Shown: positions 43,357-51,555 of the stretch, one piece after another | Numbering within the stretch: the first letter of the stretch is position 1 | How the letters are laid out: each line of letters opens with the position of its first letter | From: Escherichia coli | GTDB lineage: Bacteria; Pseudomonadota; Gammaproteobacteria; Enterobacterales; Enterobacteriaceae | Reading direction: 5' to 3' (one strand) | DNA: 64,000 bases | Assembly (NCBI RefSeq): GCF_965641715.1 | Contig: NZ_OZ282453.1 | Made by a program: the position numbers and the translations under genes | The notes under the pieces: model-generated | The model's input: only the letters and a program-made list of their open reading frames with translations | Databases searched by the model: none | What the model was told of the DNA's origin: nothing

Positions 43357-45723
43357 TCAACGTCTGCGCGGCTGCAAAATTCCTCCGGGTCGTTGTGATT
43401 CACGCTGCATCAGTCGCATCGCTGTGTTTTCTATGGTCTGCTGCAGCGCTTTTGAGTCTTCCTCTGTCCAGCCGTTGTTAGCCTGGATGTTGAACGTATT
43501 GTTCATCGTGATTCCGCCACCGCCTACCAGATCGCGGCCCGGTGTAACTCGTCCACCTTCACCCGGGATCATGTACTGTTTCCCGCCAGTGGATGTAAAT
43601 AGCTCCGGTACTCCGTGCTCCCCGACCCTATAAAGATTGCCACCGTTAACAGCCCCGCCGTTGTAACGAGCGCCAGCCAGTCCAAGCGTTTTGGCGGCAG
43701 CTACGCCAGTAGTAAGCCCGGTAAGTCCAGTGGCCCCAGCGCCGCCCATCGTGGCTACGTTAGCCAGGTATGCAGGAGTGGCCCACGCCGATCCTAATGC
43801 TGTAGCCTCTGCTAGTGCTTTAGCTGTTGCGGCTGCGTTTGCGGCTTCACCAATTAGCTGCTGTTTAACCCACTCAGCACCCATCTGGACAATGCCACCG
43901 ACCACAGAAGACAGGATCGTACTGCCAACGTTGGCAAGTGACTCTTGCAGCGATTGAGTACCGTTTATCAGTCCGGTAAATGCGCTGCCAGCGCCAGACG
44001 ATAACCCATCGACCATATTCCCGATGAGGCCATTTATATCGCTTTGTTTCTTCCACTGCTGCCACTGGAGATCCAGAACCCTTTGTTCATGTGCGATCTC
44101 TTCCTGGCGCAACTGCTCTTCGGTAGCCCCAAGATCTAGAAGCATTTGCTTGCGAACAGCCCATTCATTTTGGATCTTCTGTATTGGGTCAATCTGAGCT
44201 TTCTGCTTATCCTGCTCACTGACAAGACTGTCCCATTTCGCTTTCTGCTTGCGGATGGCTTCAGCTTCATCAATTGCTGCGAGTGTACTTGCTCGCTGTT
44301 TCGCGCTGATCAACCGTTTCTGCTCAGCCGCTTCCAGGTCTTCTACTGCTTTTTTCCGTTTATTGAGCGCCGCTAGTTCGGGATCGTATTTTTCCACCAA
44401 TGAAAGGCCGCTTGCTTCCTTACGTTCGCGTTCTCTTTGTGCCTGTTTGGCTGCCTGCTTAGCGGCGTTTTCTGCTTGTTTGGCTGCTCTTTCTTTCGCC
44501 CTGGTGTTCTCTTCTTCCTTGCGCTTATTCTCTTCTAACTCCTTGTTTTGTTCGCGTAATTTAACGATTTCCTCATGATGCGCCTTTGTCAGCTGGCCTT
44601 CTTTCAGTGCCCGATCTATATCAGCGTTTGCGTTGCCTTTTAGCTGTTCCTGTTTAACTTGCAGATGTTTAATCATCATTTCGCCAGTGGCAATCGCTGC
44701 CGCAGACGCTCCAGCATTCAGAGCTTCATTTAACGCTCTCTGACGTTCTTCTGCTGTTAATGCCTCGTTGCTGTATCGAAGTAGCGCATCAACGTATTTC
44801 TCCAGTTCTGCGCGGCCTGCCGCAGTTGCTGGTTCCATTGCTTTTAGGATGCTCAGAAGGCTTTGCGCTTCATAGGAAGACGGGTTTTTGCGGAACTGCG
44901 CCATAGCGTTATAAAGCGCCATAGCTTCACCCTCTGTGATTCTGTACTTAGCTCCCAGCCCTTCAATGACCGCTGATAACTGTTTGCCAAGCGCTGCACC
45001 GAATGCGCCTTCCTTGCTTAATTTGTTGAGCACTTCACTCAGTGAATTTCCTGACACGCCCAGCGCGTCGAGTTCTCTTGCTACCGTTCCCAGGTCGCCG
45101 CCTTTCATCCATCCTGCATTAGAAAATTCAGTGATAGCCCGGCCCGCTTCCCGCGTTTCTTCCTGGAGTGTTTTTAGCGCCCGCACGGCCTGCTCTTTCA
45201 TTACGGCGGCGGCAATGGCGTTGTTCTGTGTGGCTTCGTAATATGAATCACTGAAAGCGTTAACGCCCTGGGTGGATTTGCCGATCACGGCGTCGATTGA
45301 TGCTAATGCCTCCTTCATCCTTTCAGCGCTATCCGTTGCGTCGTCCATGCTGTCCGTTAGGCTGTTGGCAATCGCCCCGCCAATAGCCATCACCGCCCCC
45401 ATGACCGCACCGCCAGTACCGAAGGCAGCGGCAAGTTGTGCACCCTGCACAGCGAACGCCTGGAGCGCATTACCGCCCATCTGCAATTGAGTGGCAAGGT
45501 CTGCGATCTGGTATGATGCGTTACGGATTGCCGGGGAAAGGTTGGTTTTGACTGCGGCAGACGTTTTGGTCATCTGCGTGTTCAGTTTTTTGACGCCACT
45601 GTCAGCGCGTTTTGCGCCGCGTTCTATACTGTCAAAAGCCTGGTCCGCTTCTTGTTGTGCTGCCAGGAGTTTACCAGTACGGGCGTCGACCTCATAGTAT
45701 ATGGTCCCAAGATTCCCACTCAT
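43357..45723 (-). CDS. Phage tail tape-measure protein, lambda gpH-like, 788 aa, apparently full length
   Basis: The N-terminal YQIADLATQLQMGG segment, the long E/K/A/Q coiled-coil core, and the Gly-rich hydrophobic C-terminal region ending GG..YRVGEHGVPELF ... NNTFNIQANNG match my memory of gpH domain order. Confidence 0.8.
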   Translation of the reverse strand: MSGNLGTIYYEVDARTGKLLAAQQEADQAFDSIERGAKRADSGVKKLNTQMTKTSAAVKTNLSPAIRNASYQIADLATQLQMGGNALQAFAVQGAQLAAAFGTGGAVMGAVMAIGGAIANSLTDSMDDATDSAERMKEALASIDAVIGKSTQGVNAFSDSYYEATQNNAIAAAVMKEQAVRALKTLQEETREAGRAITEFSNAGWMKGGDLGTVARELDALGVSGNSLSEVLNKLSKEGAFGAALGKQLSAVIEGLGAKYRITEGEAMALYNAMAQFRKNPSSYEAQSLLSILKAMEPATAAGRAELEKYVDALLRYSNEALTAEERQRALNEALNAGASAAAIATGEMMIKHLQVKQEQLKGNANADIDRALKEGQLTKAHHEEIVKLREQNKELEENKRKEEENTRAKERAAKQAENAAKQAAKQAQRERERKEASGLSLVEKYDPELAALNKRKKAVEDLEAAEQKRLISAKQRASTLAAIDEAEAIRKQKAKWDSLVSEQDKQKAQIDPIQKIQNEWAVRKQMLLDLGATEEQLRQEEIAHEQRVLDLQWQQWKKQSDINGLIGNMVDGLSSGAGSAFTGLINGTQSLQESLANVGSTILSSVVGGIVQMGAEWVKQQLIGEAANAAATAKALAEATALGSAWATPAYLANVATMGGAGATGLTGLTTGVAAAKTLGLAGARYNGGAVNGGNLYRVGEHGVPELFTSTGGKQYMIPGEGGRVTPGRDLVGGGGITMNNTFNIQANNGWTEEDSKALQQTIENTAMRLMQRESQRPGGILQPRRR

Positions 45724-47996: not shown

Positions 47997-48046
47997 CTCA
48001 CCTCAAAAAGTAGCGGTGAGGAAAATATGGAGAAAACCCTCACCGC
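47997..48046 (-). promoter_or_regulatory. Terminator-like leader hairpin immediately upstream of alpA; one arm duplicates the SD
   Basis: mRNA sense: GCGGTGAGG-N16-CCTCACCGC (9-bp perfect stem), then UACUUUUU, then GAGGUGAG (SD), then AAC-AUG. The 3' arm can also pair with the SD (CUCACC/GGUGAG). Confidence 0.55.
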
Positions 48047-48090
48047 GCCCTGAATGAAATTAAAGACCAACATTACTGTTGATACTTATT

Positions 48091-48096
48091 ATTATA
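48091..48096 (-). promoter_or_regulatory. Candidate -10 (perfect TATAAT) for the alpA operon
   Basis: Minus strand reads ggaaTATAATaa, about 95 nt upstream of the alpA ATG. The -35 is weak (ATGTGA). Confidence 0.3.
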
Positions 48097-48185
48097 TTCC
48101 TCCTGTCCCTGTTTCACATCTTTTACCATATAGTGAAAGGGGATATTCTGTAATGTTTACAAAACTTTTAATTAGCAAAAAATAA

Positions 48186-48306
48186 TTGCGCATCTCACGT
48201 AATGCAGGGATAATATTACTCAAGGGCTGGTTGCCCTTACTCAAAATGTGATCTATAACTACAACGATCTATTTCACTTCCCCGCTTTCTCCGGCGGGAT
48301 TTTTTT
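48186..48306 (+). ncRNA. Candidate ~85-nt plus-strand sRNA (promoter through terminator)
   Basis: TTGCGC-N17-GATAAT at 48186-48214. 5' hairpin aagggc-tggtt-gccctt at 48222-48238. 3' hairpin cccgc-N8-gcggg followed by a run of seven T at 48300-48306. Confidence 0.3.
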
Positions 48307-49118
48307 GCCTGCAATCTGGCACCATTGCGCACATTAAAATTAGATGCCATTTAAAAGCGATATAACGCGTTCTGCCGGGCTTAATTTTGGCTATCCACTT
48401 GGAAGGGTAAGCCTGTTTTGATTCGTCTGGCGTGGAATGGTGCGGCGGTAATATCAGATCTCAGCGTTCTGCGTGGTGGGATGAAATAGCCTGGCAGGAT
48501 TTGCGTGTGGTTTGCTCTCCCAAAAAATGGGGTAATGGCGCTGGCTGGATGGCAGGACTCCGCGCTGATTACTGGATGGCTGAAAATTTAATGAAATCGC
48601 ATCAATTTTAATGCGTCTAAATCGCTCTGTGGCGACGTGAAGTTTTCAGGTAAGCAAGTGTAGCTGTGTGGTGTGTTCATCGCGTTACTGGCACCATTCC
48701 GTTCGAATTTGGCGCTATCAGGATGGTTTGCGGTGGTCGGCGGCGGGGATAAACTTGCTTGAGTGGTCACCTCAGCCTGCTGTGCGTCGTGTGATGGTAC
48801 TGTCTGCACCTGGCTATACGCTGCTTTGCTGCTGTTTCCTGTCTGGTCTGTATACGCGATAAAACCCATCGGCTTTACAGTGAGTGAGTTTTTTGCGCTT
48901 TGCTTTCCATTCGGTTTGCTTACTGCTGCTGTGTGTCTGTGCGGTAGCTCAGAAAGCTGTCGATGATAACCATCACTGCCAGACCGTCTTTTGAGCTGGC
49001 GATTGCTCGAAGTCTTCCGAAGGTCCGCTGGGCTTGTTGCTTGTTTGTGTTCTTTTAAAATGCGCGCCTCTTACTTTCTCTTAAAAAGAAAAAAGGAATA
49101 TACAGATCTCATACTATG

Positions 49119-49273
49119 TGTGTCCCAAATGTCACACGTCATGGCCTGACCTGTATCCCAAATGTCACACGTCACCCTCTGACCTGTATCCCAAATGTCA
49201 CACGTACCTGTGTCCCAAATGTCACACGTCTATTGTTAATTAATTGTTGACCTGTGTCTCAAATGTCACACGT
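49119..49273. repeat. Five direct 21-bp iterons TGTRTCCCAAATGTCACACGT (putative ori)
   Basis: Copies at 49119-49139, 49152-49172, 49185-49205, 49209-49229 and 49253-49273 (one mismatch). Start spacings are 33, 33, 24 and 44 bp. Four copies are preceded by (G)ACCTG. An AT-rich tract with AGATCT lies at 49081-49110. Confidence 0.85.
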
Positions 49274-49290
49274 CTGTTGATGGTTTAAGT

Positions 49291-49320
49291 AATAAAAAGG
49301 GCCACCATTTTAGGTGACCC
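49291..49320 (-). terminator. Terminator after the Rep-like gene
   Basis: Minus strand reads gggtcacc-taaaat-ggtggccc followed by TTTTTATT. Confidence 0.7.
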
Positions 49321-49338
49321 ATTGATGCGTTTTAGTCG

Positions 49339-50103
49339 TTATCTTGCGTTCTCGACCTGAAAAAGCATTCTGTATTTTCTTGCGTGCTGACCAATAACAT
49401 ATTCCCCGTATGGCTCAATGAGTCCTAACTCAACCAGGATTTTCATCTGGCGAATTACGGTGCGGCGATTCATGCCCCATTCATCAGCTATTTTTGCCTG
49501 GCAAACTTCAGATACATAAGATCCATCATTCTGCTTTCTTGCTGCTGATGCAATGCTGGATAATACGCTCCAGGCTGTAGCTTTAGCTTTATTCTCGCAA
49601 CCACTTCTGACAAATGCCTTACGTGCCGCACCCAAACAGACATAACTGCAATAAATTCCTTTTTCTTCCGTTTGGTATTGTGTCTCTTTATCCTGCATGG
49701 CTTCCGGTTCTTCCGGCGCTTCCTGCTGTGGTGCTGTCTGCGAAGTTTTAGCGGCCATACTGCGTAGCTCGTTCACGATATCAGTAGCTGATTTCTTCTC
49801 GCTTTTAGTTTCCTGCGTGACTGATAAATACTCACCTTGTAACGCCAGGAAGTCAGCGCGGGCGTTTGCCTGGCTTTGTTCTGGTGATTCAGGTTCTGCA
49901 TCGGCAGGTGATGAAATCGGTGATACACGCGCCCAGCCTGTTTTGGCGTTGCATTCCCAGCGATAACCATTAAAGCGGATATCATTCAGGCCATCATCAA
50001 TGGCGCTCCGTACTTCTTCCGGGATCGCGTCGATTTTCTGAAGGCTGTGTTTACCGAGTGATTCGCCTTGCCGTGGGGCGTAGGCGGTTGGTAAAATATT
50101 CAT
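49339..50103 (-). CDS. Putative iteron-binding replication initiator / winged-helix DNA-binding protein, 254 aa
   Basis: AAGGAGAA RBS. The C-terminal segment IADEWGMNRRTVIRQMKILVELGLIEP is a wHTH-like motif. A long acidic Q/E/P-rich linker is present. The gene is directly followed by a terminator and the iteron array. No primase or helicase motifs. Confidence 0.55.
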   Translation of the reverse strand: MNILPTAYAPRQGESLGKHSLQKIDAIPEEVRSAIDDGLNDIRFNGYRWECNAKTGWARVSPISSPADAEPESPEQSQANARADFLALQGEYLSVTQETKSEKKSATDIVNELRSMAAKTSQTAPQQEAPEEPEAMQDKETQYQTEEKGIYCSYVCLGAARKAFVRSGCENKAKATAWSVLSSIASAARKQNDGSYVSEVCQAKIADEWGMNRRTVIRQMKILVELGLIEPYGEYVIGQHARKYRMLFQVENAR

Positions 50104-50173
50104 GTGGGATTTCTCCTTTTTACTTGTTTCCCATATCGCCCGGATTGGTTAGCGGCCTTCCGGGCTTTTTGTT
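50068..50173 (+). ncRNA. Candidate countertranscript (antisense) RNA to the rep leader, ~70 nt, with its promoter
   Basis: TTGCCG-N18-TGgTAAAAT (extended -10) at 50068-50097 places the TSS near 50104, abutting the rep ATG. The transcript is complementary to the rep SD (ttctcctt at 50111-50118). It ends at hairpin gcccgga-N14-tccgggc followed by TTTTTGTT (50138-50173). Confidence 0.5.
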
Positions 50174-50317
50174 GCGTTGATCCTATTTTCGATCCCCGGA
50201 TTTTTTATTACAAACTTGGCTTAATCATTGATTTTATTGGTATAGCTGTATAAAAGGATAACAGGATAAAAGGGTGATAGATTGTGTAACCTGTTAACCT
50301 TTTATACCAGTAAGGCG

Positions 50318-50341
50318 AAAGAAAAGCCGGACGAATCCGGC
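50318..50341 (-). terminator. Terminator after the integrase gene
   Basis: Minus strand reads gccgga-ttcg-tccggc followed by TTTTCTTTC. Confidence 0.75.
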
Positions 50342-50349
50342 CTTATAGT

Positions 50350-51555
50350 TCACGGCTCCAGCGGATTACCGCCACCAGCCAATATCTGGTCGATGGCGTC
50401 GCTGTAGTCCTGCATCATGGCCCGCCGTTGCTTCAGATAGGCCGCCTGGTTATAAACGCCGCGCACACCTTTCGGAACGTGGGCCAGTTGGATTTCGATC
50501 CAGTCTGGTGAGTATCTGCCGTACTCGTTAAGTGCGGTTGAAAAGGTGGTTCGCCAGCCGTGACCAGTGGCTATCGACTTGTATCCGATACGCTCCAGGG
50601 CTTTAAGGATGGCACTGGCTGAAAGTGGCTTATCCATGAATCGACCAGGGAACACAAAAGCACTGTATCCGCTGCGGGTAAACTGGTCCTGTAATAGCTC
50701 GACCGCCTGCCGGGATAGCGGGACCACATGCGGGCGGCGGGCCTTCATGACTTCAGCGGGTAGGGTGATGGTTGCCGATTCCAGATCTACCCACTCCCAG
50801 CGCATTAAACGCAGTTCTGCGGTCCTTAGGGCGCTTAATATAAGCAAACGTATTGCCGTCTGAATCTGAACGCTCCCGGCTCTCTCAAGGGCTTTGTAGA
50901 AGGCCGGGATTTCGTTAATTTGTATCCATGCGTTATGGCCTGGGCGTCGGGCTTTCAATGCCGTGTCCAGATCTGCAACCGGATTTCGGTTAACCAGTTC
51001 AGTGATAACGGCAAATTTGAAGATTTCCCCTATACGCTGCCGTAATTTTCGGGCCTGTTCCGGCGCGGTGCGCTCTTTCTTCTGAAGCAATGCCAGCACG
51101 TCACGGGCCGTTATATCGACAATCGACCGCTTGCCAAGTACCGGATAAACATCTTTCTCCAGTGCCGATCTAACTTGTTTCGTGTAAGACTCAGACCAAC
51201 CGCTCACTCTGGTAGCAAACCAGTCTTCCGCTACCGTCTTAAAACTTGCCGCCATGTTGAGCGCATCAATGGCTTTCTCCTTGCGCGCTTCTTCCATTGG
51301 GTCAATTCCCTGGGCGATGAGTAAACGGCTCTCTGTGGCGCGTTTACGTGCTTCCTTCAAGGTAATCAGCGGATATACCCCAATAGCCTGTAACCGCTCT
51401 TTCTTGTCTATCCAGTACCGGAATCGCCAGTATTTGCTGCCATTGGGATGTACCAGCAAGAACAGGCCAGGTGTCTGTGAATCGGTGAGTTTGTAGGGCT
51501 TGTCCTTCGGCTGGGCGGCCTCTATGCCCTTTGCTGTCAGTGGTGTCTTGCTCAA
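50350..51555 (-). CDS. P4-family tyrosine integrase (N-terminal arm-binding DUF4102-type domain), 401 aa; occupies the position of K-12 intZ
   Basis: TTG start with a GAGGT RBS. KPYKLTDSQTPGLFLLVHPNGSKYWRFRY is the typical P4-integrase N-terminus. C-terminal catalytic residues are present: ...HGWRTTFST...LAHV...GVYNQAAY. Confidence 0.9.
   Translation of the reverse strand: MSKTPLTAKGIEAAQPKDKPYKLTDSQTPGLFLLVHPNGSKYWRFRYWIDKKERLQAIGVYPLITLKEARKRATESRLLIAQGIDPMEEARKEKAIDALNMAASFKTVAEDWFATRVSGWSESYTKQVRSALEKDVYPVLGKRSIVDITARDVLALLQKKERTAPEQARKLRQRIGEIFKFAVITELVNRNPVADLDTALKARRPGHNAWIQINEIPAFYKALERAGSVQIQTAIRLLILSALRTAELRLMRWEWVDLESATITLPAEVMKARRPHVVPLSRQAVELLQDQFTRSGYSAFVFPGRFMDKPLSASAILKALERIGYKSIATGHGWRTTFSTALNEYGRYSPDWIEIQLAHVPKGVRGVYNQAAYLKQRRAMMQDYSDAIDQILAGGGNPLEP

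Follow-up and report, generated by a model that had tools for sequence, protein, structure and literature searches.

A leader-complementary antisense RNA is very probably encoded opposite the 5' end of a rep-like gene in a small chromosomal island of Escherichia coli. The best explanation of the whole arrangement, to which we assign a probability of about 0.7, is that this RNA represses the translation of rep, with the island silent when integrated and self-limiting after excision. The position of the transcription start, the repression of rep translation and the link to copy number are what we infer within this reading, and copy control of the plasmid style is plausible. The analysis was performed on one 64-kb stretch of E. 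coli DNA, which is termed the window and to which all coordinates refer unless another sequence is named.

The rep-like gene and the predicted antisense RNA

An island of approximately 11 kb is located in the window between eutA and eutB, the site of the cryptic prophage CPZ-55 in E. coli K-12, and every one of its genes lies on the minus strand. The features surrounding the rep-like gene are as follows.

50350-51555, minus strand: intZ, island gene for a P4-type integrase
50326-50341, minus strand: int terminator, from a terminator scan
50185-50213, minus strand: predicted rep promoter (Prep), TTGTAA-N17-GAAAAT, read from the sequence
49339-50103, minus strand: rep-like gene, 254 amino acids with a C-terminal winged helix, ATG at 50103-50101
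49299-49320, minus strand: terminator of the rep transcript, from a terminator scan
49119-49285, no strand assigned: five 22-bp direct repeats, TGTGTCCCAAATGTCACACGTC, located 3' of rep and presumed to be origin iterons

The int terminator makes rep a transcription unit of its own, whose predicted start near 50178 would give the mRNA a leader of about 75 nt. The rest of the island comprises an AlpA/Xis-like helix-turn-helix (HTH) gene, several unknown genes and an anti-repressor-like gene. In addition, a 788-amino-acid protein encoded at 43357-45723 (minus strand) strongly matches tail tape-measure families (PHROG 1538, E = 8e-112), and such a tape-measure-like gene is an unusual cargo for a satellite-like element that measures only about 11 kb and carries integrase, Rep-like and AlpA-like genes. 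The stretch of 1.1-1.3 kb from the iterons to the AlpA-like gene (48000-49100) contains no annotated gene in a near-identical RefSeq genome (L001 11094-12439), and its AT-rich tracts adjoin the iterons; it may represent the remainder of the origin or other non-coding elements.

The name rep is owed to the winged-helix domain and the type-specific iterons downstream, and to nothing else, and we regard a replication initiator as the probable identity of the gene product. The protein matches HTH_36 weakly (3.5e-5, which does not reach the Pfam cutoff), and its match to PHROG 8102, "replication initiation protein", is weak as well (6e-4). Its AlphaFold model is confident for the C-terminal winged helix only, and both Foldseek against the PDB and a profile search of PDB sequences returned generic winged-helix regulators only. 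A stronger argument comes from the modular build of the family, in which at least three alternative winged-helix domains occur, each with a distinct array of 22-24-bp direct repeats behind it (window 49119-49285; L018 2358-2594; L022 2139-2239; L025 2052-2181; L002 4951-5046; L006 1779-1900), in which the spacing of the repeats corresponds to about two helical turns. This joint variation of protein and DNA site would fit the pairing expected of initiators and iterons, and would fit a repressor with its operators too.

The elements predicted on the opposite strand, together with their target on the rep strand, are listed below.

50068-50073, plus strand: -35 element TTGCCG of the antisense promoter (Pas), inside rep codons 11-12, from the sequence and a consensus scan
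50089-50097, plus strand: extended -10 element TGgTAAAAT of Pas, over rep codons 3-5 (Ile-Leu-Pro), from the sequence and a consensus scan
50104-50172, plus strand: predicted antisense RNA (about 69 nt) whose sequence is the complement of almost the entire rep 5' untranslated region, from the fold
50104-50134, plus strand: stem-loop 1, GUGGGA/UCCCAU, with a 19-nt loop carrying the anti-Shine-Dalgarno sequence UUCUCCUU, from the fold
50138-50165, plus strand: stem-loop 2, the terminator hairpin GCCCGGA..UCCGGGC with an inner GGUU/GGCC helix, from the fold and the scan
50166-50174, plus strand only: U-tract TTTTTGTTG, read from the sequence
50113-50118, minus strand: rep Shine-Dalgarno sequence AAGGAG, target of the loop of stem-loop 1

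An earlier, sequence-only reading of this DNA had proposed a promoter TTGCCG-N18-TGgTAAAAT opposite rep, with a predicted start at about 50104 that adjoins the rep ATG (50103-50101). This promoter was found in place at 50068-50097 on the plus strand, where the 18-nt spacer ends in TGG (TG at 50089-50090) and is followed by TAAAAT at 50092-50097. The complement of the rep start codon, CAT, occupies 50101-50103, and the predicted +1 is G50104, in agreement with the proposed coordinates. Prep and Pas face each other, and their predicted starts are about 75 nt apart. Two synonymous changes in rep that would weaken Pas (Leu4 TTA to CTG and Pro5 CCA to CCG) read CGGCAGAAT.

The consensus scan scores Pas 9/12 plus the TG, and within 4 kb it lists six promoter-like sites against 4.9 expected and twelve terminator-like sites against 4.5 expected, so the promoter match or the terminator match, taken by itself, is at chance level and not significant. 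A stricter promoter pattern (TTGnnn, a 16-18-nt spacer ending in TGn, and TAnnnT) was then applied to both strands of the 64-kb window, in which Pas is the single match. In first-order Markov random sequences, the combination of such a promoter with a GC hairpin and T-run 45-95 nt further on has an expectation of 0.05 per window.

A 73-nt RNA from this site folds into two hairpins (-24.4 kcal/mol, z-score -2.8). Stem-loop 1, which is absent from the sequence-only account, has a stem that can be extended to 50102-50136. The 7-bp arms of stem-loop 2 lie at 50138-50144 (GCCCGGA) and 50159-50165 (TCCGGGC), and the consensus scan lists an inner version of the same hairpin. The earlier proposal of a 7-bp GC stem and a T-run acting as a terminator on the plus strand only was borne out at 50138-50174, since the rep strand has no U-run there. 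Equally, the proposed complementarity of the transcript to the rep leader holds by position, for 50104-50172 includes the complement of AAGGAG at 50113-50118 and adjoins the ATG. The 5' end of the RNA is a predicted one, and its 3' end was placed by analogy with the K-12 homologue described below.

Two further candidates were rejected. The rep-strand version of the hairpin is followed by GAUAUGG, with no U-run, so that no attenuator or terminator is assigned to the sense strand. The plus-strand open reading frames at 50058-50180 and 50104-50253 are not regarded as coding, as they have no ribosome-binding site and are broken in frame by 1-nt loop indels among the variants.

Conservation of promoter and RNA fold among E. 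coli islands

Of 5,426 complete E. coli genomes, 370 carry the regulatory cassette, which is located either at the eut site or at a purU-ychJ site. Sixteen distinct variants, including K-12 CPZ-55 (intZ-yffL), were collected from complete genomes and from contigs encoding Rep homologues. A protein-based scan with one genome per species found no relatives outside E. coli, and a 21-base leader pattern was found in E. coli only, apart from six chance hits, and returned nothing from IMG/VR. The comparative set is therefore confined to E. coli.

The extended -10 pattern TGnTAxxxT is present in all 16 variants, 3-6 nt before the CAT. A TTG -35 element was scored 17-18 nt upstream of it in 14 of them, the exceptions being L006, which has no TTG, and L003, for which the scan took an offset register. 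Read as its reverse complement, the -10 box corresponds to rep codons 3-5, whose residues vary (I/M/S at codon 3 and P/A/T at codon 5). Despite these residue changes, the first base of codon 3 is invariably A, Leu4 is encoded by TTA or CTA only, and codon 5 has the form xCA throughout, and the fixed bases are exactly those needed for T6, T1A2 and the TG of the -10 element. The distance from the -10 box to stem-loop 1 is likewise fixed in 16/16, despite the residue changes and a one-codon insertion. Some of this constraint on the promoter could stem from conservation of the N-terminal peptide MNILPTAYAPRQGES.

The rep types of L004 and L005 have no N-terminal domain and share 0-17% identity with the window over 49819-50058, whereas identity rises to 77-97% from about 50059 to about 50210, a segment that comprises Pas, the antisense RNA and Prep. 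The edge at about 50059 is sharp and coincides with the -35 element even where the rep coding sequence is unalignable, which indicates that the first 15 rep codons travel with the regulatory cassette and not with the protein. At the other end of the RNA, a T-rich tail follows stem-loop 2 on the plus strand in every one of the 16 variants.

These observations bear on a reading in which the hairpin and the T-run constitute a one-way terminator or insulator that stops stray antisense transcription, begun within the island, before int, with Pas fortuitous and no discrete small RNA produced. The chance-level score of a 9/12 promoter match would suit such an insulator, as would a second antisense 3' end in CPZ-55 (at 2561657), which shows that antisense transcription exists in that element. 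We nevertheless consider it highly improbable: a fortuitous promoter does not agree with a TGnTAxxxT box that is kept in 16/16 variants at a fixed distance from stem-loop 1, with a conserved block that begins at the -35, or with a strict extended -10 motif that is unique in 64 kb, and a terminator alone leaves stem-loop 1 with its anti-Shine-Dalgarno loop unexplained.

The sense promoter is conserved as well, in that TTGyrA-N17-GAAAAT is kept in 14/16 variants; L006 has GATAAT and L007 a different promoter. Two GATC (Dam) sites flank the predicted Prep -10 at 50180-50195 (GATCCTATTTTCGATC), and the GATC at the predicted rep mRNA start is kept in nearly all variants, a layout reminiscent of IS10 pIN and other Dam-sensitive promoters. 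The segment separating the rep promoter from the int terminator (50214-50325, and its counterpart in L003-L029) is occupied, depending on the island, by one of three unrelated repeat-rich cassettes, namely GTATAAAAGGATAACAGGATAAAAGG with an inverted copy, GGAATAATTTATTCCA..TGGAATAATGGAATAAT and TATATACTAGTAG..CTAGTAAACTAGTATGT, which may be operators for island-specific regulators.

Folding with RNAfold gave the two-hairpin shape in 13 of 15 variants; stem-loop 1 was not formed in L006 and was disrupted by mutation in L023. At least five different stem-loop 1 stems keep their pairing in other islands, and the forms of this stem across the variants are GUGGGA/UCCCAU, GUGGAA/UUCCAC, AUGAGAAA/UUUCUCAU, AUGGGAAAU/AUUUCUCAU and AUGGGGAAA/UUUUCCCAU. 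In stem-loop 2, the C- and G-runs vary in length with the arms changing to match, and two alternative inner helices occur. A structural alignment, N-padded and made by hand, replaced a MAFFT alignment whose stems were out of register. In it, 92.8% of cells are paired and 12 of 20 pairs are altered on both sides; for the stem-loop 2 helix, all cells are paired and 7 of 11 pairs are altered on both sides. Covariation scores 0.47 in this alignment, compared with 0.20 for shuffles (0/500 reach 0.47) and at most 0.14 with slid partners. These figures are inflated, because the alignment was hand-fitted to plus-strand pairing and the variants are mosaics related to one another within a single species.

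Alternatively, the conserved hairpins might be functional within the rep mRNA, whose leader would act in cis by providing a protein or RNase binding site or by limiting ribosome access to the AUG, in which case the antisense transcript would be a by-product. Watson-Crick covariation is neutral as to strand, and the rep strand also forms two hairpins, which place the Shine-Dalgarno sequence within a loop and the AUG at a stem base; in 3 of the 15 variants it folds equally well or slightly better. The details of pairing favour the other strand, however. On the plus strand 272/293 cells are paired, 24 of them as G·U, compared with 254/293 and 6 on the rep strand, so that G·U pairs are four times commoner on the antisense strand. 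The antisense strand pairs better in 13/15 variants and the rep strand in none, and the plus-strand fold is the more stable one in 12/15. Moreover, the conserved T-run and extended -10 box would be purposeless for a sense leader, and in K-12 an RNA 3' end lies on the antisense strand. A cis-acting leader is accordingly judged improbable, and the antisense RNA remains the preferred reading.

RNA 3' ends at the K-12 homologue

The cryptic prophage CPZ-55 of K-12 carries a homologous cassette (intZ-yffL). In the Term-seq data for MG1655 reported by Adams et al. 2021 (eLife; PMC7815308, supplementary file 1), three minus-strand 3' ends at this site, one for each of the three growth conditions tested, are labelled "antisense yffL".

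2560302, minus strand: Term-seq 3' end, LB OD 0.4, score 25,474 (PMC7815308)
2560309, minus strand: Term-seq 3' end, LB OD 2.0, score 94,119 (PMC7815308)
2560305, minus strand: Term-seq 3' end, M63 glucose, score 58,214 (PMC7815308)

The table prints sequence alongside these entries, which corresponds to stem-loop 2 of K-12 and the U-tract behind it (PMC7815308), and the ends map 0, 4 and 7 nt past stem-loop 2, in and at the base of the U-tract. Two of the three scores exceed the lowest minus-strand values of that table by a moderate margin only. The K-12 promoter, TTGTTT-N17-TGcTAGCAT, ends at 2560380, which gives a predicted RNA of about 72 nt; the 3' ends could also derive from a longer antisense RNA. 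No entry close to the K-12 site is present in the Cappable-seq supplement, the K-12 RefSeq annotation has no RNA gene there, and a RIL-seq table contains a node "yffL.intZ.IGR" with one interaction, which is too weak for use. In one mobilome study, CPZ-55 displayed no extrachromosomal activity.

The same Term-seq source records a plus-strand 3' end at 2560188, at the intZ terminator (PMC7815308), which confirms rep/yffL as a separate transcription unit. Elsewhere in CPZ-55, opposite yffM/yffN, it records another antisense 3' end (NC_000913.3 2561657, minus strand), which has a score of 42,928 in LB at OD 0.4 (PMC7815308).

The annotation of yffL deserves comment. Its annotated start at 2560257 falls on the -35 element of the predicted rep/yffL promoter, and the annotated coding sequence takes in the whole conserved leader (L002 4258-4373; NC_000913.3 2560257-2560373). 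The AAAGGAGAA and ATG used by all relatives are located at K-12 2560371-2560373. Given an annotated start on the -35 and a conserved ATG downstream, the N-terminal 38 residues of the annotated protein are probably not translated.

Taken together, the conservation across 16 variants, the covariation with its strand asymmetry, the boundary of the conserved block and the K-12 Term-seq 3' ends support the discrete antisense transcript that the sequence-only reading had predicted.

Proposed mode of action and relation to known systems

In the proposed mechanism, a constitutive cis-antisense RNA of about 70 nt would be transcribed from the extended -10 promoter within the first 12 rep codons, starting at or beside the complement of the rep ATG. 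The transcript would form two hairpins and be terminated intrinsically, shortly before it reaches the predicted rep mRNA 5' end. Loop-loop contact would probably initiate its pairing with the rep leader and be followed by a full duplex, which would hide the Shine-Dalgarno sequence and the AUG, block the synthesis of Rep and probably serve as a substrate for RNase III as well. In the integrated island, the iteron-binding Rep-like protein would thus be kept off, and after excision the antisense dose would rise with copy number, resulting in a plasmid-like negative feedback. Interference between the facing promoters may add to the repression.

A related possibility is that the RNA is real and serves mainly a purpose other than copy control of its own island, either through interference between Pas and Prep or through exclusion or incompatibility exerted in trans against related incoming islands. 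The convergence of the two promoters is in line with the former. As for the latter, one cassette is common to islands with at least three Rep/iteron specificities, and two copies were never found in one genome among the 370 carriers, though two chromosomal sites are used. From rough class counts, however, only about 3-4 co-occurrences would be expected by chance, so this absence is weak evidence, and we take it as a weak hint of exclusion between cassette-sharing islands. As full complementarity to the island's own Shine-Dalgarno sequence and AUG makes repression in cis the simplest account, a main role of this other kind appears rather unlikely; interference, exclusion and translational repression are nonetheless not mutually exclusive.

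On a more speculative view, which we hold to be doubtful though conceivable, Pas, the antisense RNA and Prep would form a shared lock of E. coli satellite-like islands whose Rep and iteron specificities are otherwise different, in which the resident RNA silences its own rep and cross-silences incomers of the same variant. The five or six stem variants would then correspond to groups of incompatibility or exclusion, and induction would depend on a factor, encoded by a helper or by the island, that overcomes the RNA.

If translational repression by the antisense RNA is true, it would provide small islands with a simple means to silence an iteron replicon in the chromosome and to limit it once excised. 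It would also give a functional meaning to an RNA 3' end of K-12 that is detected reproducibly but carries no annotation, and would correct the likely start of yffL, and the model is directly testable in K-12 with standard tools.

Searches for known relatives of the RNA were negative within their scope. The whole window gave no Rfam match at gathering thresholds, and a search of 48800-50800 at E <= 10 gave nothing relevant: a Phe_leader match at 49292-49382 is spurious and corresponds to the rep terminator, and matches to MicX and to a eukaryotic lncRNA are spurious as well. Covariance models did not place the RNA in any curated antisense or countertranscript RNA (ctRNA) family (CopA, RNAI, ctRNA_pND324/pT181/pGA1, RNA-OUT, FinP and others). 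Among plasmids in PLSDB the only match was CPZ-55 itself on a Klebsiella plasmid, and the phages of INPHARED gave no match. The open literature on yffL, on CPZ-55 and antisense, and on phage-inducible chromosomal islands and antisense RNA yielded no description. The sequence-only reading had known of no account of such an arrangement for islands at this locus, which agrees with the negative RefSeq, Rfam and literature results; no earlier description was found of antisense rep control for integrase-borne chromosomal islands or phage-satellite-like elements of E. coli, or for CPZ-55.

Antisense control of rep is textbook knowledge for plasmids, and four hallmarks of the ctRNA class are recognizable here at the level of sequence: a predicted promoter of its own opposite rep, an intrinsic terminator that would yield a short RNA, complementarity to the leader and conserved stem-loops.

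In ColE2 and ColE3, RNAI is a short constitutive cis-antisense RNA to the untranslated leader of the monocistronic rep mRNA, which blocks the translation of Rep; the origin is situated just downstream of rep, and Rep is of the primase type. The island RNA would resemble RNAI as a constitutive, leader-complementary cis-antisense RNA, with direct repeats and a presumed origin 3' of rep, while no sequence or Rfam-detectable relationship was found between the two. Unlike ColE2 and ColE3, the island is an integrated element that possesses a P4-type integrase and a small winged-helix Rep-like protein with iterons, and its RNA, unlike RNAI, covers the Shine-Dalgarno sequence and adjoins the AUG.

The plasmid pMV158/pLS1 uses the repressor CopG besides RNAII, and CopA of R1 works through the leader peptide tap. 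Both RNAs share with the island RNA an antisense promoter in or near rep, an intrinsic terminator, loops that would pair with the leader and a dose that would follow gene dosage. In contrast to these plasmids, the island has no evident second repressor or leader peptide, and no homology was found.

Among mobile elements, temperate phage P22 produces sar RNA, which is antisense to the ribosome-binding site of the antirepressor gene ant. It is similar to the predicted island RNA in size, in starting within the 5' end of its target gene and in covering the ribosome-binding site. The two differ in their targets, an antirepressor versus a replication-type gene, and no sequence relationship was found.

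RNA-OUT of IS10 is an RNA of about 70 nt that forms a stem-loop and pairs with the extreme 5' end of the mRNA, including the ribosome-binding site and the start codon, over about 35 nt. The RNA-OUT/RNA-IN pair has in common with the island the facing promoters, an antisense RNA of about 70 nt and GATC at the sense promoter, which in the island flanks the predicted Prep -10. The target in the island is a Rep-like gene instead of a transposase gene, and the predicted overlap extends over the whole leader of about 70 nt, as opposed to about 35 nt in IS10.
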